The position numbers and the translations under genes were made by a program. DNA of 64,000 nucleotides. It comes from an uncultured Syntrophomonadaceae bacterium (GTDB lineage Bacteria > Bacillota > Dethiobacteria > DTU022). The stretch covers positions 11,630 to 75,629 of the forward strand of contig CAYTER010000001.1 of the NCBI GenBank assembly GCA_964436815.1. The letters run 5' to 3'. Positions 30,270-57,426 of the stretch are shown piece by piece. The notes under the pieces were generated by a model. The model made no database searches, was not told the origin of the DNA, and saw only the letters and a program-made list of their open reading frames with translations. Positions within the stretch are counted from its first letter, which is position 1; the number at the start of each line of letters is the position of its first letter.

Positions 30270-30291
30270 TCAAATCTAAGGAGGATATAAA

Positions 30292-31590: not shown

Positions 31591-31607
31591 CGAACAACCT
31601 GGTTGCT

Positions 31608-31825: not shown

Positions 31826-32062
31826 TTGACCCGGACCGAGAAAATTGAATCAACTGCGAGCCTGAGTATTAATGGTGATTGGTGCAAGGGTTGCGGGATA
31901 TGTGTAGCTTTCTGTCCAAGGGAAGCTCTTTTTTTGAATAATGCTGGGAAAGCTGAGAAAGACAGCGATAAGTGCAAAGCCTGTGGAGTGTGTGTGCTTT
32001 TTTGCCCTGATTTTGCCCTTAGCGTAACCAGGGGGAGGATATCTGTGAATGCCGGAAGCTAA
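31826..32062 (+). CDS. 2-oxoacid:ferredoxin oxidoreductase delta subunit (2x[4Fe-4S] ferredoxin)
   Basis: 78 aa. Two CxxCxxCxxxCP motifs. TTG start. Overlaps the alpha-subunit start. Confidence 0.7.
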   Translation: MTRTEKIESTASLSINGDWCKGCGICVAFCPREALFLNNAGKAEKDSDKCKACGVCVLFCPDFALSVTRGRISVNAGS

Positions 32063-33982: not shown

Positions 33983-34004
33983 GGTTGATTACGGGGGACG
34001 AATA

Positions 34005-34583
34005 ATGACTAAAAGGCAGGAAATATTGCTTACCGGAGCCGGAGGTCAGGGCTTGATTCTGGCTTCAATTGTTCTGGCTGCAGCGGCAGTAAACGACAAT
34101 AAAAATGTGGTTCAGACTCAGTCATACGGTCCGGAAGCGCGGGGTGGGGCCAGCATGGCCGGAGTGATTATTGATGTTGACACCATCGAGTATCCGAAAG
34201 TAACCAAACCAACGGTCTTGCTTTGTATGAACCAGGCATCATATAATAAGTACCTGCCAAAGGTTGAACCGGGATGTGTGATCATCACTGATTCCACTTT
34301 TGTCAGCGGCCCGTTCAAAGATGAATTGCAGATAAAATCGCTGCCGATTACAAAGATGGCCCGGGAAATTTTAAAGCGCGAAGTGGTTGCCAACATGCTA
34401 GCTCTTGGTGTTATAAACGCTGCAACCGGGTTAATCGATCGCCAAATCTTCCGGGATAGCATCTACAGCATGGCACCTAAGGGAAGTGGTGAGCTCAATC
34501 AGGAAGCCTTTGATCTGGGCTACCGCCTTTACGGGGAAGGACCGGAACAGCTCAGCAGAGTATCAGCTCAAAACCCCCGGTAA
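34005..34583 (+). CDS. 2-oxoacid:ferredoxin oxidoreductase gamma subunit
   Basis: 192 aa. Gamma-subunit fold (GAGGQG motif). Confidence 0.75.
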   Translation: MTKRQEILLTGAGGQGLILASIVLAAAAVNDNKNVVQTQSYGPEARGGASMAGVIIDVDTIEYPKVTKPTVLLCMNQASYNKYLPKVEPGCVIITDSTFVSGPFKDELQIKSLPITKMAREILKREVVANMLALGVINAATGLIDRQIFRDSIYSMAPKGSGELNQEAFDLGYRLYGEGPEQLSRVSAQNPR

Positions 34584-42421: not shown

Positions 42422-43747
42422 ATGAGCAGTACGGTCTTCAAAGGAGGCGTTCATCCGGACTATCATAAAGAGATAACTGCAACAATGGCCGTTATCCCGA
42501 TGAAAGCCCCCCCAACGGTAGTTATCCCTCTTCAGCAGCATATCGGCGCACCCTGTGAACCGCTGGAAGGGATAGAAGTCGGCGTCCAGGTAAAAATGGG
42601 TCAAAAGATTGCCGACAGCAGCGGTTTTGTTTCAGCCCCGATCCACGCATCTGTTTCCGGTACCATTAAAGAAATCGGCCCTTATAACCATCCTCTGGGG
42701 CGTCCGGTTAAGGCGATAACCATCGAATCTGACGGTGAGGAAAGCTGGGATGAGCAGATTAAACCGGCCGGAGACTTAGCTGCCCTCTCTGCAGAAGATA
42801 TCCGCAAACTGGTTAGGGAAGCCGGAATTGTTGGCCTGGGTGGAGCAACTTTTCCAGCTCACGTGAAACTTTCTCCGCCTCCGGAAAAAAAGATCGATAT
42901 CGTAATCATCAACGGTGCTGAATGTGAGCCTTACCTCACCGCTGACCACCGGGTGATGCTTGAAAAACCGGAGGAGATCATTTTTGGTCTTAAAGCTATG
43001 ATAAAAGCCCTGAACGCTGAAAAAGGCGTGATCGGTATTGAAGATAATAAAGGCGATGCCATAAGGGTTTTGGAACAGGCAGCCACCGGCGAGGAAAATA
43101 TCAGTGTTGCCAAACTGCACACCAAGTATCCGCAGGGAGCGGAAAAAATGCTAATCCAGGTTACTACCGGCCGCAAGGTTCCATCAGGCGGGTTACCCTT
43201 GGATATAGGGATAGTTAACCACAACGTGGGTACCGCTGTAGCCATCACCAGGGCCATTCGGGAAGGCAAGCCTTTGATTGAGAGAGTGGTTACAGTAACC
43301 GGTTCAGGTATAAACCGTCCGGCAAACCTGCTGGTCCGGATTGGAACGCTGGTCAGTGATGTTATTGAACACTGCGGTGGTCTGAAGGATAATACCCGCA
43401 AGCTGATTATTGGCGGACCGATGATGGGACTTTCCCAGCCCAACGCCGATCTGCCAGTTATCAAGGGAACTTCCGGTATCCTGGTCTTAACTGATGAAGA
43501 TGTATTCCTGGCGGAAAGGGCCCCCTGCATCCGTTGTGCCAAGTGCGTAGATGTCTGTCCGGTTTCACTGATGCCGACCCTGATCGCCCAGGCTGCGGAA
43601 CATGAACTTTTTAATCGGGCAGAAAAACTGCACGCTCTTGACTGTTTTGAGTGCGGTTGCTGTTCTTATATTTGTCCGTCCAAGATTCCACTGGTACAAT
43701 TAATCAGGATTGCCAAGGCAGAAATAATGAAAGCCAAAAAGAAATAG
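42422..43747 (+). CDS. rnfC: Rnf complex subunit C
   Basis: 441 aa. RnfC N-terminus, an NADH/FMN-binding region, and two C-terminal CxxCxxCxxxCP motifs. Confidence 0.9.
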   Translation: MSSTVFKGGVHPDYHKEITATMAVIPMKAPPTVVIPLQQHIGAPCEPLEGIEVGVQVKMGQKIADSSGFVSAPIHASVSGTIKEIGPYNHPLGRPVKAITIESDGEESWDEQIKPAGDLAALSAEDIRKLVREAGIVGLGGATFPAHVKLSPPPEKKIDIVIINGAECEPYLTADHRVMLEKPEEIIFGLKAMIKALNAEKGVIGIEDNKGDAIRVLEQAATGEENISVAKLHTKYPQGAEKMLIQVTTGRKVPSGGLPLDIGIVNHNVGTAVAITRAIREGKPLIERVVTVTGSGINRPANLLVRIGTLVSDVIEHCGGLKDNTRKLIIGGPMMGLSQPNADLPVIKGTSGILVLTDEDVFLAERAPCIRCAKCVDVCPVSLMPTLIAQAAEHELFNRAEKLHALDCFECGCCSYICPSKIPLVQLIRIAKAEIMKAKKK

Positions 43748-43776
43748 TTCTTTCACGGAGGAGGGAAGCGATCGAA

Positions 43777-44742
43777 ATGGATAACAAAATGATTATTTCA
43801 TCATCACCGCACATCAGAACCATTGAATCAGTGCAGAGTGTGATGACCGATGTTTTAATTGCCCTGTTTCCGGCAGCGCTGATGGCAGTGCTGTTGTTCG
43901 GTTATAAAGCTTTGCTGACAATGGCAATTTCAGTGCTTACAGCCATGGCAGTTGAAGCCCTGTGGTTGCGCAAACGGGATCTTTACAGCGACGGCAGCGC
44001 TGCGGTAACCGGATTGCTGTTTGCGATGGTTCTTCCGCCCGATCCGCCCTGGTGGTTGGTGGTTGTAGGTGCTGCATCAGCGATCATTATCGGCAAACAG
44101 GTTTTTGGTGGTATCGGGTATAATATTTTTAACCCGGCACTGGTCGGGAGGGCAATGGTCGTTATGTCCTGGGGAGGCCGCATGGTTGGCCCGATCTGGC
44201 CGCAGCCCCAGCCATTTGCCTTTACGGCCGATATATCAGCGGTAACTATGGCTACACCGCTGGCCAGCCAGCAGGAAGCGCTTTCTTACGGATTTACGAA
44301 TATTTTTATCGGCAGTATCCCCGGCTGTTTAGGGGAGACCTCGGCTCTTGCCCTCTTAATCGGGGGTGTTTGGCTCTATTATAAAGGTCACATAGACTGG
44401 CGTATCCCCGGTGGCTTCATCGGCATAGTTTTTATAGTGGGCACACTTTTCGGGGGAAGCTTCTTCGGAGGCCCCCTGGGAACCGGGCTCTTTCATGTCT
44501 TAGCCGGCGGGGTGATGATCGGTGCAATCTTTATGGCTACGGATATGGTTACCTCACCGGTGACAGCTTCAGGCAAGCTGATCTTCGGTATCGGTTGCGG
44601 CCTGATCACCATGCTGATCAGGATTTGGGGGACCATGCCCGAGGGCGTTACCTTTGCCATCCTGATCATGAACGCGGTTACCCCGATAATCGATAATTTT
44701 ACAATTCCCAAACAGTTCGGGGGGGTGAAGAAAAGTGCGTGA
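43777..44742 (+). CDS. rnfD: Rnf complex subunit D
   Basis: About 322 aa polytopic membrane protein (NqrB/RnfD family). Start at ATG 43777 after a GGAGGAGGG RBS. Confidence 0.9.
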   Translation: MDNKMIISSSPHIRTIESVQSVMTDVLIALFPAALMAVLLFGYKALLTMAISVLTAMAVEALWLRKRDLYSDGSAAVTGLLFAMVLPPDPPWWLVVVGAASAIIIGKQVFGGIGYNIFNPALVGRAMVVMSWGGRMVGPIWPQPQPFAFTADISAVTMATPLASQQEALSYGFTNIFIGSIPGCLGETSALALLIGGVWLYYKGHIDWRIPGGFIGIVFIVGTLFGGSFFGGPLGTGLFHVLAGGVMIGAIFMATDMVTSPVTASGKLIFGIGCGLITMLIRIWGTMPEGVTFAILIMNAVTPIIDNFTIPKQFGGVKKSA

Positions 44743-45574
44743 GGTATTAAAGCTTTCCATAACCCTGGCGGTAGTCGGTTTGGTATCCGCCGCTCTTCTG
44801 ACCGGGGTCAATAACGTAACAGCTCCAATTATAGCCGAAAGGCAGGAAGCTGAATACCGTGAAGCCCTGGAACTTTATTTTCCCGGGTTTGCAAACTTTG
44901 AAAGTCAACAGATTGAAGATGATTATTTCGATCTGATTTTTGATAGTTCTGATCAATTGATCGGAGTGATGTCGACGATCGAACAGCAGGGTTATGACGG
45001 AACCATTACTTACAACCTTGCGTTGGACGGTGAAGGTAAAGTTGTAGGAATGCTTGTCATATCGCACTCAGAAACACCTGGTATTGGTGATGTTATTACC
45101 ACCGATGAATTCCAGGAACAGTTTATCGGCAAGAGTTTCGAAGATCCGATTGTGCCTGGCGAAGATGTTGATACAGTAAGTGGCGCTACAATCAGCACTT
45201 CAGCAATAATCACTTCAGTCCGCCGGGTGGTAAATGTCGTTGCAGAAAACTTTCTAGGTTTTGAAGCAGCGGTCATTGATATAACTGCTGTTCCTGACGG
45301 TATTTACGAGGGTTCTGCTCCCGGTCTGGCCGGACCGATTGTCGTAGAGGTTGAAGTTACCGGAGGACAGATTGTCCGGATCAGTGTCCTTGAACATAGT
45401 GAAACACCAACTTATTACATTGAGGCGTACCCGCTGATTCCGGAAAGAATTATTGCCGAGCAGAGCTTTGATGTTGATACAAAAACCGGAGCCACCCTGA
45501 GCGCCAAGGGGATCGTTGAAGCAGTGCAGGCGGCTCTGGCCGCTGCTTTGGAAGCAAATGGCGGAGGTGAATGA
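44735..45574 (+). CDS. rnfG: Rnf complex subunit G with two FMN-binding motifs
   Basis: 279 aa. N-terminal TM anchor, then two FMN_bind-type motifs: VSGATISTSAI and KTGATLSAKGI. Confidence 0.85.
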   Translation: MREVLKLSITLAVVGLVSAALLTGVNNVTAPIIAERQEAEYREALELYFPGFANFESQQIEDDYFDLIFDSSDQLIGVMSTIEQQGYDGTITYNLALDGEGKVVGMLVISHSETPGIGDVITTDEFQEQFIGKSFEDPIVPGEDVDTVSGATISTSAIITSVRRVVNVVAENFLGFEAAVIDITAVPDGIYEGSAPGLAGPIVVEVEVTGGQIVRISVLEHSETPTYYIEAYPLIPERIIAEQSFDVDTKTGATLSAKGIVEAVQAALAAALEANGGGE

Positions 45575-45577
45575 TCA

Positions 45578-46207
45578 TTGAAATCTAATACTTCTTATTT
45601 GCAGGAATTTACCAAGGGGATACTCAAGGAAAACCCTGTCCTGGTAAGTTTGCTCGGCATGTGCCCGGTTTTAGGGGTTACGGCCTTTATTGTTAACGGA
45701 GTCGGGATGGGTCTGGCGGCAACAGCGGTCCTGATTGCTTCCAACCTGGTTATCTCGCTGCTCAGGAATTATATTCCGCCCCAGGTCCGCATTCCCTGCT
45801 TTATCGTGGTGATAGCGACCTTTGTTACCATTATTGAAATGGTGTTGAAAGCTTTTCAGCCGGTTCTTTATGAGGCGCTGGGGGTTTTCGTGCCCCTGAT
45901 CGTCGTTAACTGTATAATCCTGGGCCGGGCGGAAGCGTTTGCCAGTAAAAACAGCCCGCTTCGTTCAGTTTTAGATGGTGTGGGAGCCGGGATCGGTTTT
46001 ACCCTTGCCCTGCTGCTACTTTCTGCGGTCCGGGAAATTATCGGGCAGGGAACAATCCTGGGTCCTGATCCGGATACGATCATTCATCTTTTCGGCGCCA
46101 ATTTTGAGCCGATGGCCCTGTTTGCCCAGCCTCCGGGAGCCTTTATTGCCTTAGGGCTTCTGTTGGCCGGGGTAAACACGCTTTTTAAACGCTTTAATAT
46201 TAAATAG
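45578..46207 (+). CDS. rnfE: Rnf complex subunit E
   Basis: 209 aa. NqrD/RnfE family six-TM protein. Confidence 0.9.
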   Translation: MKSNTSYLQEFTKGILKENPVLVSLLGMCPVLGVTAFIVNGVGMGLAATAVLIASNLVISLLRNYIPPQVRIPCFIVVIATFVTIIEMVLKAFQPVLYEALGVFVPLIVVNCIILGRAEAFASKNSPLRSVLDGVGAGIGFTLALLLLSAVREIIGQGTILGPDPDTIIHLFGANFEPMALFAQPPGAFIALGLLLAGVNTLFKRFNIK

Positions 46208-46253
46208 GTTGGCTGCTCGATTTTGAGCCTGGCAACCTGAGCAGGAGGATAAC

Positions 46254-46835
46254 ATGGAAAAGCTGCTTTCAATATTTTTTATCTACATTTTTGTTGATAA
46301 CTTTGTTCTGCAGCGATTTTTCGGAATTTGCCCCTTCCTAGGGGTTTCCCGGAAAATGGAAACGGCCATCGGCATGAGTATGGCGGTAGTTTTTGTAATG
46401 ACCATGGCTACCCTGGTTACCTGGCTGGTTTATACTTTTGTCCTGGTACCATTTGGTCTTGCTTACCTGCAGATTGTTACTTTTATTTTGATCATTGCTT
46501 CCCTGGTTCAGCTGGTAGAGATTGTCCTGCGCAAGATCAGTCCTACGCTTTACCAGGGTTTGGGGATATTTTTACCCCTCATTACCACCAACTGCGCTGT
46601 AATGGCAGTAGCCCTGCTTGCTGTGCGCCAGGAGTTTTCACTGCTTGAATCGGTAGTCTTTGCTGTCGGCGCATCACTTGGTTTTTCCCTGGCCCTGGTG
46701 ATTATGGCTGGCATCAGGGAAAGACTGGAACTGGCAACGATGCCCGACGTATTACGCGGTTCCGCCGTGACGCTGATCACTGCCGGTATCCTTTCAATGG
46801 CTTTCCTGGGCTTTAAGGGAATGATTACCCTTTAA
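46254..46835 (+). CDS. rnfA: Rnf complex subunit A
   Basis: 193 aa. NqrE/RnfA family. Confidence 0.9.
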   Translation: MEKLLSIFFIYIFVDNFVLQRFFGICPFLGVSRKMETAIGMSMAVVFVMTMATLVTWLVYTFVLVPFGLAYLQIVTFILIIASLVQLVEIVLRKISPTLYQGLGIFLPLITTNCAVMAVALLAVRQEFSLLESVVFAVGASLGFSLALVIMAGIRERLELATMPDVLRGSAVTLITAGILSMAFLGFKGMITL

Positions 46836-46917
46836 CGTTATTATTCAGGCAGAGCAAGGATATGATCATTTAAGCAGTTTTAAGTTTGGACAAAATTTTT
46901 AAGAGGTGAAGTGAATC

Positions 46918-47772
46918 GTGCTTATTATATATGCGATTGCAGCACTCGGTTTAATCGGCTTGATCTTCGGGCTTTTACTGGCTATGGCGGCCCGGTTTTT
47001 TGCTGTTCAAACCGATCCGCTGGTTGAATCGATCAAAGAAGCACTACCGGGAGCCAACTGCGGAGCCTGTGGCTATGCCGGCTGTTCCAATTTTGCCGAA
47101 GCTGTGGCTGCCGGCGAAACAAAAGCAAATGGCTGTATTCCGGGTGGTGATGAGACATCAAAGGCTATTGCTGAACTGCTCGGACAGGAAGCATCTTCTG
47201 CTGTTCAACCGATTGCTACCGTTTTTTGCATTGGCGACTGCTACAAGGCCGCCGATCGTTTCATTTATGACGGGGTTGAGGATTGCGCCGTAGCCTCTGA
47301 TTTTGTTGGCGGTTTTAAATCCTGTACATACGGCTGCCTGGGTCTTGGCAACTGTGTGCGGGCCTGTCTTTTTGATGCGATAAAAATGGGTGAACATGGC
47401 TTGCCGGTAGTGGATTATGACAAATGCACCGGTTGCGGCCTTTGTGCTACGGCATGTCCACGCAGTATTATCCAGATGCTGCCCAAGGGTAAAGAAGGAC
47501 ACCTGGTATTGTGCAGCTCGCACGACCGTGGCAAGTCAGTTTCCGCTGCCTGTGAAGTCGGCTGTTTCGCCTGCAAGGCCTGCGTCAAAGCCTGTCCGCA
47601 GGAAGCAATTGAAATGGTTGATAACCTTGCTGTAATAGATCTCGAAAAATGCAATGATTGTGGGGAATGTGTGCCTAAATGCAAGCCTGGCACTATCCAT
47701 CGGCGAAATTCAATCCCTTCGGAAGCTGATGCTCTTGCTTCAGCAGCCGCTTCAGTGGCCGAATCCGCGTAA
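46918..47772 (+). CDS. rnfB: Rnf complex subunit B (polyferredoxin-type)
   Basis: 284 aa. N-terminal TM helix, a CGACGYAGC cluster, and at least three further CxxCxxC(xxx)CP ferredoxin motifs. GTG start. Confidence 0.85.
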   Translation: MLIIYAIAALGLIGLIFGLLLAMAARFFAVQTDPLVESIKEALPGANCGACGYAGCSNFAEAVAAGETKANGCIPGGDETSKAIAELLGQEASSAVQPIATVFCIGDCYKAADRFIYDGVEDCAVASDFVGGFKSCTYGCLGLGNCVRACLFDAIKMGEHGLPVVDYDKCTGCGLCATACPRSIIQMLPKGKEGHLVLCSSHDRGKSVSAACEVGCFACKACVKACPQEAIEMVDNLAVIDLEKCNDCGECVPKCKPGTIHRRNSIPSEADALASAAASVAESA

Positions 47773-47786
47773 CTTAAATTTAATTA

Positions 47787-47820
47787 GGGACAGGGTGTTA
47801 AAACCTTGTCCCTGATTTTA
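47787..47820 (+). terminator. Rho-independent terminator after rnfB
   Basis: GGGACAGGGT, loop, ACCTTGTCCC, then TGATTTTAAAT. Confidence 0.5.
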
Positions 47821-47885
47821 AATAACCGTTAACCTATCAGATTACTTTAGAAAACATATTTACTTCCGACCCCGGTGGTGAAAAG

Positions 47886-48377
47886 GTGAAGAATCGCCTG
47901 CCAGATTACATCGGTCCAACTTTTATCATGTTCTTATTTTGGGTTGCCGTTAGCGGCAGCCTGAAATGGCCTCAGTTGTTATTTGGTTTTATGGCCTCGG
48001 TTTTTGTGGTCTGGTTTAACCGGAATCTGTTGATCAGGTCTGCTGAACGGGTGCCAATCCGTCCGAAGACTATTTTTTGGTTTGCCGGTTATATCCTTAA
48101 ATTACTATGGGATATTGTTATTGCCAATTTTCAGGTAGCAGCCATTGTTCTCAGTCCTAAAATGCCCATTGAGCCAAACCTGGTTAAGATGGAGCTTGAT
48201 TTTGAGAAAGTAACCAGCAGGGTGTTGCTGGCCAATTCGATCACTTTAACCCCGGGAACGCTGACAATTATGGCTGAAGACAATAAATTCCTGGTTCATG
48301 CTTTAACCCATAAAAGCGGCGAAGGCTTGAAGCGGTGGCCGCTGATCGCCAAAATCAGGGAAATGGAGGAATCCTAA
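47886..48377 (+). CDS. mrpE: Mrp/Mnh-type cation:proton antiporter subunit E
   Basis: 163 aa. MrpE/MnhE family topology and conserved core. GTG start. Confidence 0.65.
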   Translation: MKNRLPDYIGPTFIMFLFWVAVSGSLKWPQLLFGFMASVFVVWFNRNLLIRSAERVPIRPKTIFWFAGYILKLLWDIVIANFQVAAIVLSPKMPIEPNLVKMELDFEKVTSRVLLANSITLTPGTLTIMAEDNKFLVHALTHKSGEGLKRWPLIAKIREMEES

Positions 48378-48379
48378 CC

Positions 48380-48661
48380 TTGGATCTGGTCAAACTCCTC
48401 GACAGCGCATATCAAGTGGGCGCGATACTCGTGATGCTGATGATCTTCCTTTCCCTGGTGAGGGCCCTTCTTGGTCCGACAGCCCCTGACAGGGTGGCTG
48501 CGATTAACATCATCGGCACCAAGACCCTGATTATTATTACCCTTATAGCCAGGGTATACGGTCATCAATATTTTCTGGATATCGCCATGGTCTATGCCTT
48601 GATGAGTTTTATCACCACGATCGGAGTAGCCAAATACCTGGAGAAGGGAGCCCTTGATTAA
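48380..48661 (+). CDS. mrpF: Mrp antiporter subunit F
   Basis: About 93 aa with three TM helices, MnhF/PhaF-like. TTG 48380 is preferred. The track start at 48335 overlaps mrpE. Confidence 0.6.
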   Translation: MDLVKLLDSAYQVGAILVMLMIFLSLVRALLGPTAPDRVAAINIIGTKTLIIITLIARVYGHQYFLDIAMVYALMSFITTIGVAKYLEKGALD

Positions 48662-48990
48662 TGACCTTCTTTCTGGAACAGTTACTTGGCTGCTTATCAC
48701 TGATTTCACTGGTTGGCGGACTATTTTTCCTTTTTGTCGGTACTGTAGGACTATTACGTCTGCCGGATGTATTCAACCGGCTCCATGCTACAACCAAATG
48801 CGATACCCTGGGGGCAGGTTTGATCCTGCTCTCTCTGGCCCTGCAAAGTAACGTTGCTGTTGGAGTGAGGCTTATTCTGCTTGCCTTGTTTATCCTGATT
48901 ACCAACCCGACTGCAGCGCATGTAATTGCCAGGGCTGCTTACAAAACCGGAATAACACCGGTTATCGCCAGGAGAACCGATGATCAGTGA
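48661..48990 (+). CDS. mrpG: Mrp antiporter subunit G
   Basis: 109 aa. MnhG/PhaG-like (GLLRLPDVFNRLHATTK). Confidence 0.7.
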   Translation: MTFFLEQLLGCLSLISLVGGLFFLFVGTVGLLRLPDVFNRLHATTKCDTLGAGLILLSLALQSNVAVGVRLILLALFILITNPTAAHVIARAAYKTGITPVIARRTDDQ

Positions 48991-49222
48991 ACTGTTAAAC
49001 GTTATGCTCCTTCTTTTTCTGATTGTCTGTGCGATCGGGGTGGCATACATCCGCGATTTGCTGAGTGCTGTAATCTTATTTTCTGCTTTTGGACTGATTA
49101 TGGCAATCATCTGGCAGCAGCTCAGCGCACCGGATGTCGCCATGGTTGAAGCGGCTCTCGGAACAGGTGTGGCCGCACTTTTAATGATTGCGGCGATCAG
49201 CAAGACCAAACGGGCGGAATAA
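48980..49222 (+). CDS. DUF4040-type small membrane subunit (MbhD / MrpB N-terminal-like)
   Basis: 80 aa with two or three TM helices. Its position and size match MbhD-type subunits of Mbh-like Mrp modules. Confidence 0.45.
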   Translation: MISELLNVMLLLFLIVCAIGVAYIRDLLSAVILFSAFGLIMAIIWQQLSAPDVAMVEAALGTGVAALLMIAAISKTKRAE

Positions 49223-49246
49223 GCCTTTTATCAAGGAGGATACCGG

Positions 49247-49585
49247 GTGTCTGTTATTCTGATTGCATTTTTGGCCTTTCTGGCTATCTTCCTGCGTTTT
49301 GTGATCGGGGTAGAGCTAAGAAGCATTCTCACTTTTTATCTATTAGGTTTGATCATCTATTTCTTTAGCTTTACTGTGGCCGAGATGCCTCTTTTTGGCT
49401 CAATTGAAAGCCCCGCGTTTAATGAAGTGCCCAGGCGCTATCTTGAGTCCGGGGTGGTTGAAACAGGAGCACTCAACATCGTGAGCAGTATAATTACTGA
49501 CTATCGTGCGTTTGATACTCTGGGTGAGGCTACAGTTCTCTTTGCGGCAATTGCCGCGGTGATTGCCACCTTGAAGTCGCACTAA
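49247..49585 (+). CDS. MnhB-domain subunit (first part of a split MrpB; MbhE-like)
   Basis: 112 aa. Conserved NIVSSIITDYRAFDTLGEATV motif of the MnhB family. Confidence 0.55.
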   Translation: MSVILIAFLAFLAIFLRFVIGVELRSILTFYLLGLIIYFFSFTVAEMPLFGSIESPAFNEVPRRYLESGVVETGALNIVSSIITDYRAFDTLGEATVLFAAIAAVIATLKSH

Positions 49586-50063
49586 GAATGAAGGGAGCCG
49601 GGTAACGATCGAAGATCAAATTGTCCGGATAACCAGCCGCCTGGTTGCTCCATTTATCCAGCTCTACGGCATCTACATCATTGTTAACGGCCACCTTACT
49701 CCCGGGGGTGGTTTTTCCGGTGGTGCAATTTTTGGCGCCAGCCTGGTACTTGTGGCTATCTCATTCAATTTGGAGGCAGGGGCGAAGCAGATTTCGCACA
49801 ACACTGCCTCGCTGTTGGAAAGTGGTGGCGCTCTCGGTTTTACTTTAACCGGTCTGGCCGCACTCTTCCTGGGCGGCAATTATCTGGCCAACCGGGCTGC
49901 CGGATTTCCTCTCGGACAAGCCGGGGAGCTTTTCAGCGCCGGCGCAATCTGGATTATTACTGTTTTTATCGGCATTAAAGTCGCCAGCACCATTACCACC
50001 CTTTTTTACCACATTATCGAGAAGGAGCAGGCTGTTGGAGATACTAAGCGGACTGATCAATAA
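49575..50063 (+). CDS. MnhB-domain subunit (second part of split MrpB; MbhF-like) with a non-canonical or unresolved start
   Basis: The frame is open from 49575. It holds the MnhB hallmark GHLTPGGGFSGG. The first canonical start (GTG 49752) lies downstream of that motif. Confidence 0.45.
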   Translation, partial: SRTKNEGSRVTIEDQIVRITSRLVAPFIQLYGIYIIVNGHLTPGGGFSGGAIFGASLVLVAISFNLEAGAKQISHNTASLLESGGALGFTLTGLAALFLGGNYLANRAAGFPLGQAGELFSAGAIWIITVFIGIKVASTITTLFYHIIEKEQAVGDTKRTDQ

Positions 50064-50403
50064 TTACTACTACCTGGTGGCGGTAATCCTTTTTGTAATC
50101 GGAACGCACACCATGCTTACTCATGCAAACATGATTAAGAAAGTCATAGCCATGAATATCATGGATACTTCGGTATTCCTGCTTTTTGTGGCAATTGGCT
50201 ATGTGCGGGGTGGGCAGCCGCCGATCATCAGTTCCGGCAGTGATACCCTCTATATCAATCCTCTTCCGGGTGCTTTGATTCTAACCGGGATAGTTGTGGC
50301 GGTCAGTGTCACAGCCTATGCACTCAGTCTTATAGTTAAAATACACCGCTATTATGGAACGGTCGATTATGATGAAATCTGTGAACTCAGGGGCGATGAG
50401 TAG
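50035..50403 (+). CDS. mrpC: Mrp antiporter subunit C (NuoK-like)
   Basis: 122 aa with three TM helices, NuoK/MnhC family. Confidence 0.75.
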   Translation: MEILSGLINNYYYLVAVILFVIGTHTMLTHANMIKKVIAMNIMDTSVFLLFVAIGYVRGGQPPIISSGSDTLYINPLPGALILTGIVVAVSVTAYALSLIVKIHRYYGTVDYDEICELRGDE

Positions 50404-51881
50404 TGGGCATGGTTGAGCATATACCGGCGTTGATTGTGGTTATACTGCTGATCTGCGCCTTTCTCTCCCCGCTTCTTCACCGTCGCTTTGAGAAAGCAAG
50501 CGGTTTATTTGTTGTCCTTTGCCTGTCATTTTCACTGGTCCTGTCCCTAATTTTACTGTCACTCGTACAGCGGGAAGGGCCTCAATTCTACCGGATGGGC
50601 AGCTGGCCCCCTCCCTGGGGCATTGAATATACTGCCGATCCGCTCCGGGTTTACATGCTGCTGGTAGTTGTTGTCGTCAGCCTCTGGATTTTTGTCTATG
50701 CCTTAAAAGATTTAAAACATGAATTGCGCGACCAGGTAATCGGTTGGTATTATACTCTTTTTGCCCTCCTGGTTGCTTCCATGGCGGCCATGACCATGAC
50801 TAACGACCTTTTTAACCTTTTTGTTTTAATGGAAATCTGCGCTATTACATCATGTGCGATCATTACGATCAAGGAAGATCGCGAATGCCTTGAAGCGGGT
50901 TTTAAATACCTGATTTTAAGCGCCATGGGGACCGGTTGTTTTCTGCTCGGTGTAGCATTGCTCTATATGGTCACCGGGCATCTTAATTTCGGTTTTCTGC
51001 AGCAGGAGTTATCAACTGCCGTCACCCATTACCCGCTTAATGTCTTTACGGCAGCTGCTTTGTTCATTGTTGCTTTCGGCACCAAGGCTGCCCTCTTCCC
51101 GTTACACGTGTGGCTTCCAGATGCCCATGCGTCAGCCCCATCGCCTTCGAGTGCCATGTTGTCAGGCCTGGTTATTAAGATTTATGCTTTCGCCCTTTTT
51201 ATTATTTTTTACCGCGTTTTTCCCCGCTCACTGCTTGACAGCCTGCCGCTTAGCGAGATCGTGCTCTGGCTGGCCGCCCTGGGAGTTATGTTCGGTTCAA
51301 TCTATGCCATGCTGCAAAAGGATTTAAAGAAGATGCTGGCTTACTCCAGTATTGGTCAGATTGCCTTTATTTTTATGGGCATCGGCCTGGATCAGCGTCT
51401 TGCTTTGGTCGGGGGTCTTTATCACATCGCCGTTCATGCAGTGACCAAGGCGATGCTTTTTATGGCCGCCGGAGCCATAATCTATGCAACCGGAGTCCGG
51501 AGAATCAGTGACCTGACAGGTATTGGCCGGGTTATGCCCCTTGTTCTGGTTGCATTCACCATCGGCAGCGCTTCGATGATCGGTATTCCGGGCACAGGGG
51601 GATTGATCAGCAAATGGTATCTGGCTTTGGGCGCCCTGGAAGTCGGACGATCTCTCTTCGTGTTGGTTATTTTGCTGAGCAGCCTCCTCAATGCCATCTA
51701 TTACATGCCAATCGTGATTAATGCTTTTATGAGCCAGGATGATTTTAGTCACGAGGTAAAGAAAGTGCCTGCTGTTATGCAGGCAGCACTGGTTGCCGGT
51801 ATGATTTTCGTTGTTGTCACCGGAATTTTTTCCCGGCCGCTGATTTTACTGTTGGAGGATGCCATCAGCTTCTTTTTCTAA
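50403..51881 (+). CDS. NuoL/M/N-type proton-translocating antiporter subunit (MrpD-like)
   Basis: 492 aa. Proton_antipo_M core (WLPDAHASAPSP...). Confidence 0.8.
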   Translation: MGMVEHIPALIVVILLICAFLSPLLHRRFEKASGLFVVLCLSFSLVLSLILLSLVQREGPQFYRMGSWPPPWGIEYTADPLRVYMLLVVVVVSLWIFVYALKDLKHELRDQVIGWYYTLFALLVASMAAMTMTNDLFNLFVLMEICAITSCAIITIKEDRECLEAGFKYLILSAMGTGCFLLGVALLYMVTGHLNFGFLQQELSTAVTHYPLNVFTAAALFIVAFGTKAALFPLHVWLPDAHASAPSPSSAMLSGLVIKIYAFALFIIFYRVFPRSLLDSLPLSEIVLWLAALGVMFGSIYAMLQKDLKKMLAYSSIGQIAFIFMGIGLDQRLALVGGLYHIAVHAVTKAMLFMAAGAIIYATGVRRISDLTGIGRVMPLVLVAFTIGSASMIGIPGTGGLISKWYLALGALEVGRSLFVLVILLSSLLNAIYYMPIVINAFMSQDDFSHEVKKVPAVMQAALVAGMIFVVVTGIFSRPLILLLEDAISFFF

Positions 51882-51957
51882 TCCCGGGTTAATTGAGGAC
51901 GCGGTTGAATTATTAAGGCAACAAACCTATAATAAACTATAATGCAAACCGGCGGGG

Positions 51958-53493
51958 GTGACTTTTTTGGCCGTAAATACGGTTGTAACGATCCAGATTA
52001 TCATTGTCCTGGCTCCGATAATTATGACTCCGGTCATCATGTACAGTGACCGTGTATCAGATAAATTGCGCAACAGTCTCTCAGTTGTAACAGCGGCTTT
52101 AGCTTTTATCCTGACCCTGACCCTCTATCCCTTCATCAGAGACGGTGGCGTGGTTCAGCGTTCCCTTTTTGAAATTCTGCCGAACCTTGAAATATCAATT
52201 CGCCTCGACCTGTTGAGCTTTGCGCTGGCCGCCCTGGCTTCCTTTATCTGGTTTTTAGCGACGCTCTATTCACTTGATTATATGGCGAAAGAGCATGCCG
52301 GTGGACGTTATTACCCGGTCCTGATTTTTACCCTCGGCAGTTGTCAGGGTATATTTTTTGCCGGCGATCTATTCAGCCTCTTTGTTTTCTTTGAACTGAT
52401 GTCGATCATTGCTTACATCCTGGTCATCCACGAGCAAACCGAAGAAGCGCTTAAAGCCGGATATAAATATTTGGTGATGACCATTATCGGCGGTTTAGCC
52501 CTGTTCTTCGGGATGATCATTATTTTTGAACTGGGCGGCACCGTGTCGCTCGGAGTGGGGCCGATTATCCAGGAAAGATCCGTGCTGGCCCTGATTGCTT
52601 TCATCTGTTTCCTGATCGGCTTTGGGATGAAAGCCGGCATGTTTCCCCTTCACGTCTGGTTGCCTGACGCCCATCCTGTCGCTCCTTCACCGGCCAGCGC
52701 CCTGCTCTCGGGGGTAATGCTGAAGACTGGCGCTTACGGCCTGATCAGGGTTATTTTTTTCGTCTACTCATTTGATTTGCTAAAAAGCAGCAACTGGGAT
52801 GATATCCTTGCGGTTCTGGCTGTAATCACCATCCTGCTGGGTTCTGCCGTGGCGCTGACCCAGACAGATATAAAACGGCGGTTAGCTTACTCCAGCATCA
52901 GTCAGCTGGGTTATGTTCTGCTTGGCCTTAGTATCATCAATAATAATGCGATCACCGGAGCGATATTCCATATCTTCAGTCACGCTTTCATGAAAAGCGC
53001 CCTCTTCCTTGCAGCCGGAGCGATAATCTGGAAAACCGGCAAACGTAACATTGCTGATCTGAAGGGGATCGGCAGACAGATGCCGGTAACCATGGGCTGT
53101 TTCTCTCTGGCCGCTTTGGCGATGATCGGCATTCCGCCTTTGAACGGTTTTCTTAGCAAATGGACCCTGGCTTTAGGAGCTCTTGATGCCGGGATGCCCG
53201 GCTTTGTATTGGTTCTTCTAATCAGCAGTCTGCTTAATGCTCTCTACTACCTGCCGATTATTATTCCGGCTTTTTTTGAACTGCCGGGCGAACATTCAGC
53301 AGAACATAATAACCATGATCCACACGAACATTATGACCCACCGGTAAAAATCGAAGAGGCCACTCCCGTGATGCTGTCGGCCGTAGTTATTTTGGCTCTT
53401 TGCACCATCTTTTTTGGCTTAACTCCCAATAACATCGCTTTTGGCTTATCGCGTCTCACTGCCGTTTTTCTGTTGGGAGGAGGGACCTTCTAG
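51958..53493 (+). CDS. NuoL/M/N-type antiporter subunit (second MrpD-like)
   Basis: 511 aa. WLPDAHPVAPSPASALLSG motif. Paralogous to the neighbouring subunits. Confidence 0.8.
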   Translation: MTFLAVNTVVTIQIIIVLAPIIMTPVIMYSDRVSDKLRNSLSVVTAALAFILTLTLYPFIRDGGVVQRSLFEILPNLEISIRLDLLSFALAALASFIWFLATLYSLDYMAKEHAGGRYYPVLIFTLGSCQGIFFAGDLFSLFVFFELMSIIAYILVIHEQTEEALKAGYKYLVMTIIGGLALFFGMIIIFELGGTVSLGVGPIIQERSVLALIAFICFLIGFGMKAGMFPLHVWLPDAHPVAPSPASALLSGVMLKTGAYGLIRVIFFVYSFDLLKSSNWDDILAVLAVITILLGSAVALTQTDIKRRLAYSSISQLGYVLLGLSIINNNAITGAIFHIFSHAFMKSALFLAAGAIIWKTGKRNIADLKGIGRQMPVTMGCFSLAALAMIGIPPLNGFLSKWTLALGALDAGMPGFVLVLLISSLLNALYYLPIIIPAFFELPGEHSAEHNNHDPHEHYDPPVKIEEATPVMLSAVVILALCTIFFGLTPNNIAFGLSRLTAVFLLGGGTF

Positions 53494-55770
53494 TTGTTTG
53501 CCGCAGCCCCGGAGCACTTGCCTGAAGCATACCAGCTTTATTATTCCGGCATACCCCTGTGGATTACTGTGGTGCCTATGCTGGCCGGGATCGGCATTTA
53601 CTTTATTAAAGACAGCTGGGAGAAAATTAGGAAAGCGATTTCTCTGCTCGTGTCAATATTCTCCCTTGTTGGCGTTGTGCTGCTTTTTCCTTTGGTGTTG
53701 AGTGGTACAGTTTGCTTTGATCTGCTAAATTTTATGCAGCTCGGCCTTTTTTTTGAGGTTGACCTGATCGGCTGGATATTTGCCCTGCTGATCACCCTGG
53801 TCTGGTTACTGGCGACAATTTTCTCTCTTACCTACATGGATTTTGAACATAATCGCCGTCGCTACTATAGTATTTTAATCTTCACCCTGGGGGCAACTCT
53901 CGGTGTCGTCCTCGCCGGAGATTTCTTCACCCTCTTTTTATTTTTTGAGCTAATGACATTAAGTTCATTTATTCTGGTAATTCACGAGCAGGATTTCCAG
54001 GCGATGCGGGCGGGTATTCTTTATCTCTATCTTGGCATAGCCGGTGGTCTGGCGTTATTATTTGCCATTATGCTTCTTTTTGCTGCGACCGGTTCAGTTG
54101 ATATTACTCCGGTTTTGGATCAACTGGTTGTCAACCGGTCTCTGATTTATGTCCTTTTCTTAATCGGGTTCGGCATAAAAGCCGGTTTAGTACCGCTTCA
54201 TATCTGGCTGCCCCTGGCTCATCCGGTGGCGCCTTCACCGGCCAGTGCCCTGCTCTCCGGGATTATGATTAAAACCGGTGCTTACGGGATCCTCAGGGTG
54301 TCGCTGATTCTGTTTTCCTCTCCGGCGGAAACCGGCGCACCTGATGCAAATTATCTTTTTACGACCGGCAATGCCCTGATGTGGGTCGGTATTGTCACCA
54401 TGCTTGCCGGGGCGGTTATGGCTTTGCTGCAGGATAATATGAAGCGTATTCTGGCTTACAGCAGTGTAAGTCAGATCGGTTATATTGCCACCGGCCTTGG
54501 CGCAGCTATGTTAATGGGGATCGGCGGAGCGATGGGCTTCGCCGGTGCCATATACCATATTATCAACCATGCTTTTTTTAAAGCCGGACTTTTTATGATG
54601 GTGGGTACAATTTATATTTACACCCATGAATTGGAGCTTTCGCGTCTGGGCGGCATGCTGAAAAAGATGCCCCTGGTCGCGGTAACCTTTGTGGTGGCGG
54701 CTTTCGGTATCGCCGGTATGCCCGGTTTTAACGGCTATCCAAGCAAAACACTGATTCATGATGCCCTTTTGATTGCTATTAAATATAATGAAATGATCAG
54801 TCTCGAAATAGCTGAAAAAATATTTACCCTGACCAGCGCCCTGACAATCTGCTATTTCATTAAGCTATTCAAAGGTATTTTCCTGGGGCCTGTTCCGGAA
54901 AAGCTGGATCGCCATTATCGGCTAACCCCTTCAATCATAGCGGTGCTCAGCTCCTTTTCAATGATCATAATTGCCATCGGGCTTTTTCCAAATCTGATCC
55001 TGGAAAGGATCATTGTACCGGCTGCTGAAATGTTAAAATATGAAGGCTATGCCATGGACCACCTTTATCATTTCTACTTTTTTGAATGGCACCCCCTGGA
55101 GGCGATGGTGATCGTCGGCGTACTGGCGATGATCATCTATATTCCCGGTTACTACCGTCGTTGGTTTGACTGGAAGCCACCGGAATGGCTCAGTATTTAC
55201 TATCTTGTTTACCAGCCGATCACCCACTACCTGATGGTCCTGACCTGCCGGACCGGTGTATTTGTCGACTCATCTATCGATAAAGCCTATGATCGAACCG
55301 GAGGTGTAGCCCGCAGCTGGTGTAATTTTGTCGGTGATTTTGATCAGGGTCTGGATCGGTTTTACCGCAAGTGGGGGGATGTAGGGCTTAAAATGGCTGA
55401 TCGTTCCCGTGATATGGATCAAAAAATCGATCAGTTCTATCAGAAATCCGGGGAGGCTGCTCGCAAAATTGCTGATAAATCGGCGGATATGGACAGCGCT
55501 CTCGATAAAGCTTACCTCGAAACCGGTCGGGCAGCTCAAAAACTGGCGAAACAATCTACTGATATCGATCGTGCTCTCAATGTAGTCTATGACCAGGCCG
55601 GACAGAAAGCACGAAAAGAGATGGAAAGAAGATTTGAAGCCAAGAAAGACAAGGAACGCAGTACGGAACAGGTTAAATGGACCACAAAAAATTTAAGTTT
55701 TGATAACCTGCTATTGGTTATTGTTCTCGGTGTGGTCCTGTTTATAATTTTCTATTTTGGACGTTCCTGA
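53494..55770 (+). CDS. NuoL/MrpA-like antiporter subunit with a long C-terminal amphipathic helix and terminal TM anchor
   Basis: 758 aa. N-terminal about 500-aa antiporter core (WLPLAHPVAPSPASALLSG). C-terminal about 170-aa charged repeat-helix ending in one TM helix. Confidence 0.75.
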   Translation: MFAAAPEHLPEAYQLYYSGIPLWITVVPMLAGIGIYFIKDSWEKIRKAISLLVSIFSLVGVVLLFPLVLSGTVCFDLLNFMQLGLFFEVDLIGWIFALLITLVWLLATIFSLTYMDFEHNRRRYYSILIFTLGATLGVVLAGDFFTLFLFFELMTLSSFILVIHEQDFQAMRAGILYLYLGIAGGLALLFAIMLLFAATGSVDITPVLDQLVVNRSLIYVLFLIGFGIKAGLVPLHIWLPLAHPVAPSPASALLSGIMIKTGAYGILRVSLILFSSPAETGAPDANYLFTTGNALMWVGIVTMLAGAVMALLQDNMKRILAYSSVSQIGYIATGLGAAMLMGIGGAMGFAGAIYHIINHAFFKAGLFMMVGTIYIYTHELELSRLGGMLKKMPLVAVTFVVAAFGIAGMPGFNGYPSKTLIHDALLIAIKYNEMISLEIAEKIFTLTSALTICYFIKLFKGIFLGPVPEKLDRHYRLTPSIIAVLSSFSMIIIAIGLFPNLILERIIVPAAEMLKYEGYAMDHLYHFYFFEWHPLEAMVIVGVLAMIIYIPGYYRRWFDWKPPEWLSIYYLVYQPITHYLMVLTCRTGVFVDSSIDKAYDRTGGVARSWCNFVGDFDQGLDRFYRKWGDVGLKMADRSRDMDQKIDQFYQKSGEAARKIADKSADMDSALDKAYLETGRAAQKLAKQSTDIDRALNVVYDQAGQKARKEMERRFEAKKDKERSTEQVKWTTKNLSFDNLLLVIVLGVVLFIIFYFGRS

Positions 55771-55780
55771 GGAATAACAG

Positions 55781-56848
55781 TTGAATAAAAAGCGGCGTCT
55801 AGCCCTGGCCGGATCAAGGCAGAAAGCAGTAAGTTATCTTACTAAGTACCGTCTTTATCTTATCGCTCTGGCGGCAGTTATGGTTATAATGCTGATCTTA
55901 AGCTTCAGGAATGCTGAAGATCAGCGGGTCTATTACCTGACAACCATGGACACCATGATCGAGCTGAATTTTACAGTTCCCGATGGCAGCAGTCCCGAGC
56001 AAATCAGGGATGCCGTTTTTTATGAGATTGAGCGCCTTGAAAAATTACTGAGCAGGACGGAAAGAGCCAGTGACATATACAGGGTTAATAGTTTCGCAGG
56101 TTTGGAACCGGTAAAAGTCAGCCGGGAAACCCTGTTCCTGGCTGCTTTAGCATTACAGTATGCAGAAATCAGTGCAGGAGCCTTTGACCCGACTATCGGG
56201 CCGTTTATTGATAGCTGGGGGTTTCTCGATCAGGAATTCAGATTGCCGCCGGAAGAAGAAATCCGGCAGCTCCTGCCATTGATCAATTACCGGAAAATAA
56301 TAATTGATCATTCAGATGCGACTATTTTTTTACCGGATAAGGGCATGGTTCTGGAACTTGGCGGCATTGCCAAGGGCTATATTGTAGACCGGGCGGCTGC
56401 TGTTTTAAAAAGTTTAAATGTTAAAAGGGCTTTTATCAATGCCGGCGGTGATATTGCCTTGATCGGCAGTAGACCGGACGGTCAGGGCTGGAAAATCGGT
56501 GTCCGCCACCCCCGGGATGATAAATCTATAATTGCAGCCCTCTCAGTGTCCGATTCGGCAGTGGTCACTTCCGGTGACTATCAGCGTTATTTTGAAAAGG
56601 ATGGCGTTTCTTACCATCATATTATTGATCCGCAAAGCGGCAGACCGGCTGGAAAATTAGCCAGTGTGACGATTGTAGCTTCAACTGCTGCTGAAGCTGA
56701 TGCGCTTTCAACGGCAGTATTTGTCCTCGGTCCGGTCACAGGTCTGGCTTTGATTGAAAAGATTAGGGGAGTGGAAGGTGTTTTGGTTACCCCGGAGCTT
56801 GAGATTATCAGTTCAAGCGGCCTGGAAAATATTTTGGAACTTAAATAG
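55781..56848 (+). CDS. apbE: FAD:protein FMN transferase (ApbE family)
   Basis: 355 aa. N-terminal membrane anchor and ApbE fold (GGIAKGY, SGDYQRY...HHIIDP). Confidence 0.85.
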   Translation: MNKKRRLALAGSRQKAVSYLTKYRLYLIALAAVMVIMLILSFRNAEDQRVYYLTTMDTMIELNFTVPDGSSPEQIRDAVFYEIERLEKLLSRTERASDIYRVNSFAGLEPVKVSRETLFLAALALQYAEISAGAFDPTIGPFIDSWGFLDQEFRLPPEEEIRQLLPLINYRKIIIDHSDATIFLPDKGMVLELGGIAKGYIVDRAAAVLKSLNVKRAFINAGGDIALIGSRPDGQGWKIGVRHPRDDKSIIAALSVSDSAVVTSGDYQRYFEKDGVSYHHIIDPQSGRPAGKLASVTIVASTAAEADALSTAVFVLGPVTGLALIEKIRGVEGVLVTPELEIISSSGLENILELK

Positions 56849-56862
56849 ACAGGAGTAAAATA

Positions 56863-57426
56863 ATGCAACAAAATCCCGTTCGTCTTAGAAGCCGCCTGAA
56901 TCATCTCACCTACCTGGCGGTCCTGATTACATTTGCCATTGTTATTCACACTGTTGAAGCCGCCCTGCCTCTGCCGATGCCGGTGCCGGGCGTAAAACTG
57001 GGCCTGGCTAATATAATCACCCTTTTAACCCTTACCCTGTTTGGCCTTCGTAGTGGCTTGCTGGTTACTGTTTTAAGAACTGTACTCGGCAGTCTCTTCA
57101 TCGGGGGGCTCTTTGGTTTTGGATTCTGGCTCAGTTTTACGGCTGGAATTACCAGCTGCCTGGTGATGGCTCTGTTGCTAATCCTTAAACGAAAAGCTTT
57201 GATCAGCCTGGTATCGGTCAGTGTCTTGGGCGCTGCTGTCCACAACCTGACCCAACTGACGGTTGCCTCGGCCATTATCTCTAATTTCTCGCTATTAAAA
57301 GGCTATTACCCACTGCTGCTGTTATTGTCCGTGCCAACCGGTATTTTTACCGGTCTGGCTGCTCATTACCTTGAAGGAATAACCAGGCGGATGATCCTGA
57401 AAGCTGAAACGGAGCCTGACCGATGA
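56863..57426 (+). CDS. Gx-transporter family membrane protein (heptaprenyl diphosphate synthase component I-like)
   Basis: 187 aa with five or six TM helices. Gene of the kind commonly associated with apbE/rnf loci. Confidence 0.55.
   Translation: MQQNPVRLRSRLNHLTYLAVLITFAIVIHTVEAALPLPMPVPGVKLGLANIITLLTLTLFGLRSGLLVTVLRTVLGSLFIGGLFGFGFWLSFTAGITSCLVMALLLILKRKALISLVSVSVLGAAVHNLTQLTVASAIISNFSLLKGYYPLLLLLSVPTGIFTGLAAHYLEGITRRMILKAETEPDR

Follow-up and report, generated by a model that had tools for sequence, protein, structure and literature searches.

In this study, we analyzed a 64,000-nucleotide stretch of DNA (hereafter, the window) from an uncultured Syntrophomonadaceae bacterium (GenBank assembly GCA_964436815.1, contig CAYTER010000001.1), which carries on its plus strand, at 42422–57426, a run of 18 consecutive genes: an rnf block, an mrp block, the flavin transferase gene apbE and a Gx-family gene. 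The gene order is rnfCDGEAB, then mrpE-F-G-MbhD-MbhE-MnhB-mrpC-D1-D2-D3, in which D1 to D3 are antiporter-like subunits, and then apbE, Gx and maf. Both gene sets are intact, all subunit families of the two systems are present, no redox-module gene for the mrp block lies in the window, and the same order is conserved in relatives. We consider it fairly probable that this locus encodes two separate, co-regulated membrane complexes together with their helper genes, and that it is a conserved neighborhood of alkaliphilic anaerobic Bacillota. An earlier reading of the letters alone (the sequence-only reading) had likewise paired Rnf with a stand-alone Mrp module free of a hydrogenase, and this pairing was borne out by the families present and by the lack of any redox-module gene in the window.

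Gene Content of the rnf Block

The six rnf genes occupy 42422–47772, as the sequence-only reading had placed them; they are encoded together, and each was identified by Pfam and exceeded the curated cut-off of its NCBIfam model. The rnfC product (42422–43747, 441 amino acids) carries the Pfam domains RnfC_N, Complex1_51K, SLBB and Fer4 and scored 583 bits with TIGR01945 (cut-off 246), and that of rnfD (43777–44742, 321 amino acids) matched NQR2_RnfD_RnfE and reached 313 bits with TIGR01946 (cut-off 207). The rnfD start at 43777 is that of the gene call on identical contigs; the longest open reading frame (ORF) begins at 43651. The rnfG product (44735–45574, 279 amino acids), with FMN_bind in two stretches, scored 106.7 bits with TIGR01947 (cut-off 102), and rnfE (45578–46207) and rnfA (46254–46835), both encoding Rnf-Nqr proteins, reached 252 bits with TIGR01948 (cut-off 213) and 269 bits with TIGR01943 (cut-off 229), respectively. 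The last gene, rnfB (46918–47772, 284 amino acids), is of the polyferredoxin type, with FeS and several Fer4 domains, and scored 254 bits with NF005503 (cut-off 252) and 126 bits with TIGR01944 (cut-off 69). The means of maturation are found at the same locus: RnfG has the SGAT flavinylation motif, for covalent attachment of flavin mononucleotide (FMN), at residue 149, and a gene for the ApbE flavin transferase lies downstream. The block is predicted to encode a standard six-subunit ferredoxin:NAD+ ion pump, its activity and ion coupling being predictions as well. The enlarged RnfG, with its 279 amino acids and two FMN_bind stretches, also has a second motif, TGAT, near the C-terminus, and the RnfG homolog of Alkalicella (locus L088, 1044–2450) has 468 amino acids.

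Gene Content of the mrp Block

Ten genes, and not the nine counted before, make up the block that follows. What had been taken for an MnhB subunit split into two ORFs is in fact two distinct and conserved genes, one MbhE-like and one encoding an intact MnhB (MbhF-like), as in the membrane-bound hydrogenases (Mbh), so that the ten genes amount to MbhA to MbhH plus two extra antiporter-like subunits. The tight packing described earlier was found at nearly all junctions, which are overlaps or spacings of 1–25 nucleotides; the sole exception is a gap of 76 nucleotides ahead of D2.

The block opens with mrpE (MbhA-like, 47886–48377; Pfam MNHE, 1.3e-34; best solved structures 6u8y_A and 6cfw_A), mrpF (MbhB-like, 48380–48661; Pfam MrpF_PhaF, with the NCBIfam subunit F models below their cut-offs), whose TTG start agrees with the gene call on an identical contig, and mrpG (MbhC-like, 48661–48990; Pfam PhaG_MnhG_YufB, 96 bits with TIGR01300 against a cut-off of 63). 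In Mrp and Mbh, these three subunits are part of the cation-exchange portion. Two small subunits come next. The MbhD-like or DUF4040 subunit (48980–49222; Pfam MbhD; best solved structures 6cfw_D and 6u8y_D) corresponds to part of the C-terminal domain of MrpA, with a weak match to residues 636–697 of 7qru_A, and the MbhE-like subunit (49247–49585; Pfam MbhE, with NCBIfam hits at the C-terminal ends of MrpA models) corresponds to the remainder. The equivalent of MrpA is therefore split three ways, into an antiporter-like protein, MbhD and MbhE.

The mnhB (mrpB, MbhF-like) gene at 49608–50063 covers positions 1–126 of the 127 in the Pfam MnhB domain (E = 1.6e-27; best solved structures 6u8y_E and 6cfw_F). 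Its reading frame opens at 49584, and the product translated from an ATC codon at 49608 spans the whole domain; the homologous codon, just before the conserved EDQIVR, is ATG, GTG, TTG, CTG or ATC in relatives. A frameshift or pseudogene was rejected on these three grounds, namely the open frame, the full domain and the ATC at the position of the homologous start. Since no ATG, GTG or TTG stands at the true start, the ORF list gives 49752–50063 alone for MnhB; automatic gene calls on identical metagenome contigs also shorten the protein, to 103 amino acids.

The remaining genes are mrpC (NuoK-like, MbhG-like, 50035–50403; Pfam Oxidored_q2 and the NCBIfam subunit C models) and three large genes with Pfam Proton_antipo_M, encoding D1 (50403–51881, 492 amino acids; best solved structures 6u8y_H and 6cfw_H), D2 (51958–53493, 511 amino acids; 6cfw_H) and D3 (53494–55770, 758 amino acids; 6cfw_H and 6u8y_X). 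A Glu in transmembrane helix (TM) 5, Lys/His in TM7, Lys in TM8, His/His/Lys in TM11 and Lys in TM12 are invariant in D1, D2 and D3, and likewise in 12 homologs of D3; the helix numbers are those on which, by analogy with NuoL and MrpA, these residues presumably sit. Their retention marks all three as predicted functional antiporter-like subunits. The families of the Mrp (CPA3) antiporters are thus all represented by Pfam (MNHE, MrpF_PhaF, PhaG_MnhG_YufB, MbhD, MbhE, MnhB, Oxidored_q2 and three Proton_antipo_M), and the sequences contain the motifs H..PGGGF in MrpB, TPGT in MrpE and GP...DR in MrpF, which are known from mutagenesis work. Scores of the Mrp subunits mostly fall under the NCBIfam equivalog cut-offs. 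The block appears to be a complete cation/proton antiporter gene set of the split-MrpA type, and antiport activity is predicted for it.

The gene order had been assigned to the Mbh type and not to canonical mrpABCDEFG, and this proved correct. For every Mrp subunit tested, chains of the Pyrococcus furiosus MBS (6u8y) or MBH (6cfw) scored above those of the bacterial structures 7qru, 6z16 and 7d3u (the best-matching chains were A, D, F and H of 6cfw and A, D, E, H and X of 6u8y), and MrpA is split as in Mbh. The canonical bacterial antiporters of Bacillus pseudofirmus (7qru), Anoxybacillus flavithermus (6z16) and Dietzia (7d3u) are likewise stand-alone CPA3 systems with all subunit families and the conserved charged residues; the block of the window differs from them in starting with E-F-G, in having MrpA in three proteins and in encoding three rather than two antiporter-like subunits. 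Its order, E-F-G-MbhD-MbhE-B-C-D-D-D with a split MrpA, is neither that of group 1 (mrpABCDEFG) nor that of group 2 (mrpA'CDEFG) as these are defined in the literature.

With the P. furiosus MBH and MBS the block shares the subunit set and the gene order MbhA–H. Unlike them, the window has no equivalents of MbhI–N or MbsJ–N, that is, of the NuoB/C/D/H/I-like redox and connecting subunits. Profile searches among the window ORFs of at least 120 amino acids, which are the main coding ORFs of the 64 kb, found no member of the NuoB, NuoC, NuoD, NuoH or NuoI families and no hydrogenase family, in agreement with the sequence-only reading; the catalytic and NuoH-like connecting subunits (MbhJ–N) are accordingly missing from this set. 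MBH has one antiporter-like subunit and MBS has two. The window, by comparison, has three, one of which bears a repeat tail, and its host is bacterial.

This tail belongs to D3, which consists of a 14-helix core, one TM helix, five exact 25-residue polar repeats (residues 594–718, window 55273–55647) and a terminal TM helix. The repeat consensus is D-x-x-[IL]-D-x-x-Y-x-x-x-G-x-x-A-[RK]-K-x-A-D-x-S-x-D-x, and exact copies of D3 were found on metagenome contigs with identical gene order. Among D3 homologs the number of repeat copies ranges from 0 to 6, with three to six in most terminal subunits and two in L049. The number of antiporter-like subunits per rnf-linked mrp operon varies too: two in L005 and L086, three in the window, L087 and L088, four in L006 and L033, and five in L019. 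Across these two-to-five-subunit operons the repeat tail is always on the last antiporter-like subunit. A Pfam search with the tail gave no credible match, and in an exhaustive search of 1.84 billion cluster representatives the tail matched just 78; most full-length matches have it at the C-terminus of proteins of 650–860 amino acids, and the remaining matches are shorter sequences. In the AlphaFold2 model of D3, confidence is moderate to good for the core, and the tail comes out as long helices whose predicted local confidence (pLDDT) is below 50. The layout of the tail (TM helix, long helix, TM helix) resembles that of the lateral helix of NuoL, and we speak of resemblance rather than demonstrated homology because the D3 repeats are much more polar. 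An additional, solitary D3-type gene was seen in Dethiobacter alkaliphilus (L004) without Mrp partners. The Nt-Nha protein of Natranaerobius thermophilus, described in the literature, is a solitary MrpA/D-like protein with antiport activity.

Conservation of the Arrangement among Relatives

One genome per species was scanned, which yielded 79 loci (referred to by L numbers), and all window proteins were mapped onto them by tblastn. Direct adjacency of rnfB to a downstream mrpE was found in 19 species-representative genomes, with apbE-Gx-maf-radC after the last antiporter-like gene in most; these genomes are mainly metagenome-assembled genomes (MAGs) from soda lakes and serpentinizing sites labeled Syntrophomonadaceae, Dethiobacter, Clostridiales or Bacillota. 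Four cultured species share this order, namely Natranaerofaba carboxydovora, N. thermophilus JW/NM-WN-LF, D. alkaliphilus AHT1 and Alkalicella caledoniensis; they come from Natranaerobiales, Dethiobacteria and Proteinivoracaceae and represent different families, orders or classes. The synteny search for rnfB–mrpE adjacency that had been suggested as a check was thus answered in the affirmative by both sets of genomes. The Mrp and Rnf proteins of the cultured carriers are ∼32–66% identical to those of the window, and the linked arrangement persists down to ∼38–43% identity of the largest subunit. Genes resembling those for NuoH/MbhM, NuoB/MbhJ or NuoD/MbhL were found in none of the 22 linked loci of relatives that were inspected. 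Soda lakes and serpentinizing sites are the habitats named for the hosts in records and papers.

The loci of the four cultured species, among them the Rnf-Mnh "large locus" of N. carboxydovora (ACONDI 00389–00396), share with the window the rnfCDGEAB genes, the mrp block, the apbE-Gx-maf-radC continuation and a terminal D3-type subunit with its repeat tail. They have two antiporter-like subunits in N. carboxydovora and N. thermophilus and, like the window, three in D. alkaliphilus and A. caledoniensis. Two elements described below, the hairpin that follows rnfB and the predicted promoter ahead of D2, are confined to the window or its own clade, in contrast to these four loci.

Other genes come and go within the conserved frame, molybdenum-cofactor genes repeatedly among them. 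Many relatives have moaC between rnfB and mrpE (L005, L020–L023, L026, L086, and L087), where the window has none; a MOSC/MoCF_biosynth gene stands 3' of D3 in Alkalicella (L088, 12361–13281), and NusG_II and DUF4321 genes are interleaved in some linked loci. In L065, a relative outside the group, apbE comes directly after rnfB, which suggests that the mrp block sits within a unit of Rnf and its maturation gene.

Soda-lake MAGs with the rnf-linked locus also contain a second Mrp-like locus (L029–L032, L038–L041, L044, and L051), in which four or five consecutive antiporter-like genes face a divergent mnhB-mrpC-D-mrpE cluster. Given such further Mrp-like loci in the same genomes, the rnf-linked copy would be a dedicated paralog. 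Partial Rnf-like sets, either RnfC with RnfD or copies of RnfG, were observed (L053, 2303–4626; L051, 2–2000; L025, 6843–8594; L067, ∼3676) near Mbh-order Mrp clusters in genomes that lack a full rnf operon at the site, for example in Anoxynatronum sibiricum.

Transcription of the Locus

Between rnfB and mrpE, at 47782–47821 of the plus strand, lies a hairpin followed by a short T-run, a candidate intrinsic terminator or attenuator, which agrees with the terminator noted earlier at the end of the rnf operon. The hairpin proper (47782–47817) has a GGGACAGGG/CCTTGTCCC core, followed by TGATTTT, and a folding energy of −24 kcal/mol (z = −5.3); none of 200 shuffles folds as well. The mrpE start lies ∼65–70 nucleotides downstream, so the spacing of within 70 nucleotides given before stands. 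The hairpin occurs once in the window and was rejected as a repeated element. A terminator conserved between rnfB and mrpE was rejected too, the intergenic regions ranging from 15 to about 700 nucleotides, some with moaC. In several sister species the gap is just 15–57 nucleotides and hairpin-free, and other relatives have different hairpins. Such short gaps imply co-transcription, and rnf and mrp are probably co-transcribed across the group as a whole; in the present genome, the hairpin may attenuate read-through from rnfB.

A second element, a predicted internal sigma-70-type promoter (TTGAAT-17-TATAAT) at 51905–51933 of the plus strand, lies within the gap between D1 and D2 (51882–51957). 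It scored best among the three 10-of-12 promoter-like matches of the scan, and is the one exact match to its pattern in the 64 kb; chance alone would give 0.07 such matches, and 7 of 100 shuffles had one. Five sister species (L007, L010, L013, L016, and L018), whose proteins are just ∼70–80% identical, keep the site in both sequence and position; it is absent from the D1–D2 gap of the three type strains D. alkaliphilus, A. caledoniensis and N. thermophilus (L086–L088). The site probably drives D2-D3-apbE-Gx-maf-radC independently. An Rfam search of the whole window found just two tRNAs, and no regulatory RNA in the intergenic regions.

Proposed Function and Alternative Explanations

For two co-regulated complexes, the ion specificity, the direction and electrogenicity of transport and the functional link between them are what we infer, as follows. 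First, Rnf would oxidize reduced ferredoxin and export Na+ electrogenically as the primary pump, a Na+ coupling suggested by reports on relatives; the aldehyde:ferredoxin and 2-oxoacid:ferredoxin oxidoreductases encoded nearby could be the enzymes that reduce the ferredoxin, and ApbE would attach FMN to RnfG and RnfD. Second, the ten-subunit Mrp, powered by the membrane potential and Na+ gradient that Rnf builds, would take external H+ in and move internal Na+ out, an exchange that would hold the cytoplasm at a lower pH than the medium, recycle Na+ and interconvert the Na+ and H+ gradients. Third, and speculatively, a greater number of H+-conducting antiporter-like subunits per Na+ site might turn more of the potential into an inverted pH gradient, in which case the series from two to five subunits would gain an adaptive meaning.

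There is a physiological rationale for such a pairing. Strict anaerobes living at pH 9.5–11 or higher, without a proton-pumping respiratory chain, must hold their cytoplasm well below the external pH, and the simplest way to power this pH homeostasis would be a Na+ pump linked genetically to an electrogenic Na+/H+ antiporter. The locus therefore combines two well-known systems in a manner that physiology would lead one to expect, and the placement of the mrp block between rnfB and the Rnf maturation gene apbE speaks for the same reading. Little explored so far are the repeat tail of D3, the variation in subunit number and the predicted promoter inside the mrp block. The natural series of two, three, four and five antiporter-like subunits in otherwise identical operons could bear on an old question, the relation between the number of antiporter-like modules and ion stoichiometry in Mrp, Mbh and complex I, and the idea is directly testable since cultured carriers exist, N. 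thermophilus, N. carboxydovora and A. caledoniensis among them.

Several observations weigh against this interpretation. In the literature, we found no biochemical, genetic or structural study of an rnf-linked Mrp. At least 24 loci hold the E-F-G-MbhD-MbhE-MnhB-C-D(n) cluster without rnfB upstream, in Clostridiaceae, Alkaliphilus, Proteiniclasticum, Anoxynatronum, Erysipelotrichaceae, Coriobacteriia and other Actinomycetota, and Thioalkalivibrio, so a hydrogenase-less Mrp of Mbh order is ordinary in anaerobes; L023 retains moaC-mrp-apbE with no rnf upstream. The valS, folC, maf, radC and mreBCD genes around the locus are a conserved housekeeping backbone, and part of the synteny could for that reason be inherited order rather than selected linkage. 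In the window itself, the strong hairpin parts rnfB from mrpE with no recognizable promoter 3' of it, and the internal promoter ahead of D2 could drive the distal genes on its own.

These points lead to the alternative that deserves most attention, that Rnf and a general-purpose Mrp have merely stayed adjacent in a stable housekeeping region, by inherited gene order and without functional coupling. The flanking genes, with minCDE in addition to valS, folC, maf, radC and mreBCD, are what such an origin would predict, as are the terminator-like hairpin 3' of rnfB, the frequency of this Mrp type without rnf and the mrp-apbE genes of L023 with no rnf upstream. Yet families, orders and a separate class share the order at ∼40% protein identity, and it stays while moaC, MOSC/MoCF, NusG_II and DUF4321 genes come and go. 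Moreover, the mrp block parts rnf from its own maturation gene, in several species the stretch from rnfB to mrpE is too short to hold an independent promoter, and additional Mrp loci exist elsewhere in the genomes. On balance we judge mere inheritance of the order unlikely, though it is the rival to be taken seriously.

A closer union can also be imagined, in which Rnf and Mrp form a physical supercomplex and Rnf, in place of the hydrogenase or NADH-dehydrogenase module, drives the antiporter-like subunits or is geared by them. Its attractions are the deeply conserved embedding of the mrp block between rnfB and apbE, the very short rnfB–mrpE gaps of some species, the closeness of the Mrp subunits to the respiratory membrane arms of MBH and MBS, an antiporter-like subunit number that varies from two to five as in respiratory complexes, and the family-specific repeat tail of D3. 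However, the window has no NuoH/MbhM-like or NuoB/D-like connecting subunit, the same Mrp type stands alone in many genomes, and the hairpin and internal promoter interrupt the unit in the window. The span from ferredoxin to NAD+ supports ∼1–2 ions per two electrons, and on general bioenergetic grounds no redox energy would be left for three extra pumping modules. We regard a supercomplex as very improbable, and hold out equally little hope for its corollary that the two to five antiporter-like subunits, governed in part by a separate internal promoter in the clade of the window, set the H+/Na+ gearing while the D3 repeat tail acts as a clamp or docking element.

Least probable of all, and in our view scarcely credible, is a reading of the ten genes as the membrane arm of an oxidoreductase, complex I-like or Mbh-like, with its catalytic subunits encoded elsewhere. 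Such a reading was suggested for "Ca. Contubernalis alkaliaceticus", where the homologs carry two annotations, antiporter and putative membrane part of an NADH:quinone oxidoreductase, and NuoEF-like genes lie elsewhere. Sequence similarity is indeed closest to the MBH and MBS arms, but neither the window nor the 22 linked loci contain the NuoH/MbhM, NuoB/MbhJ and NuoD/MbhL homologs by which every solved relative joins its redox module to the arm, and MrpE, MrpF and MrpG are present.

Comparison with Described Systems

The interpretation as an Rnf pump with a dedicated, separate antiporter has precedents in part. The rnf and mrp genes of Methanosarcina acetivorans are not known to be adjacent. 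In that archaeon, by an accepted proposal, Mrp balances Na+ and H+ gradients made partly by Rnf, and the idea is like ours, with Rnf making the Na+ gradient and Mrp adjusting the Na+/H+ ratio for the ATP synthase. M. acetivorans differs from the bacterium of the window in its archaeal host and in an Mrp of group 1 mrpABCDEFG order; its Rnf reportedly includes a multiheme cytochrome, unlike that of the window.

The sequence-only reading knew of no characterized bacterial example of the arrangement. It is indeed uncharacterized by experiment, but it recurs widely; it has been in public genomes since 2008 and was remarked on in print once. The genome paper of N. carboxydovora touches briefly on the Rnf-Mnh locus and proposes for it a role in linking H+ and Na+ gradients and in pH homeostasis. 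In "Ca. C. alkaliaceticus" (Dethiobacteria), the Rnf genes HUE98_01685–01710 adjoin a ten-gene antiporter, HUE98_01720–01765; the paper is silent on this adjacency, and its authors propose a Na+-dependent ATP synthase. A Na+-dependent Rnf and ATP synthase have been proposed for carrier organisms in genome papers. A review of Mrp notes divergent mrp clusters in anaerobes and three overlapping mrpB genes in N. thermophilus, and MrpEFGBBBCD has been annotated in a serpentinite MAG, so clusters that start with E-F-G and lack a hydrogenase are already annotated as Mrp/Mnh in the literature. For co-expression of rnf and mrp in N. thermophilus, the literature yielded nothing relevant.

Accessory and Neighboring Genes

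As the sequence-only reading had described, the mrp block runs straight into apbE and the Gx gene. The apbE gene (55781–56848, plus strand; Pfam ApbE, 2.6e-88; NCBIfam ApbE match under its cut-off) encodes a flavin adenine dinucleotide (FAD):protein FMN transferase and begins 10 nucleotides after D3. Next comes the gene for a Gx-family (PF07456) membrane protein (56863–57426, plus strand), with Pfam Hpre_diP_synt_I at 6.8e-40 and a weak ECF_trnsprt match; an NCBIfam search gave no match for it at E ≤ 1e-10. Its 3' end overlaps the start of maf. Upstream of the 18 genes lie valS and folC, and downstream maf, radC, a radical-SAM gene and the gene for RNase G.

Farther upstream in the window, at 25164–34583, a sigma-54 activator gene is followed by genes for a class-III aminotransferase, an aldehyde:ferredoxin oxidoreductase, a Glu/Leu/Phe/Val dehydrogenase and a three-subunit 2-oxoacid:ferredoxin oxidoreductase. 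This region looks like an amino-acid fermentation cluster that would feed reduced ferredoxin to Rnf.

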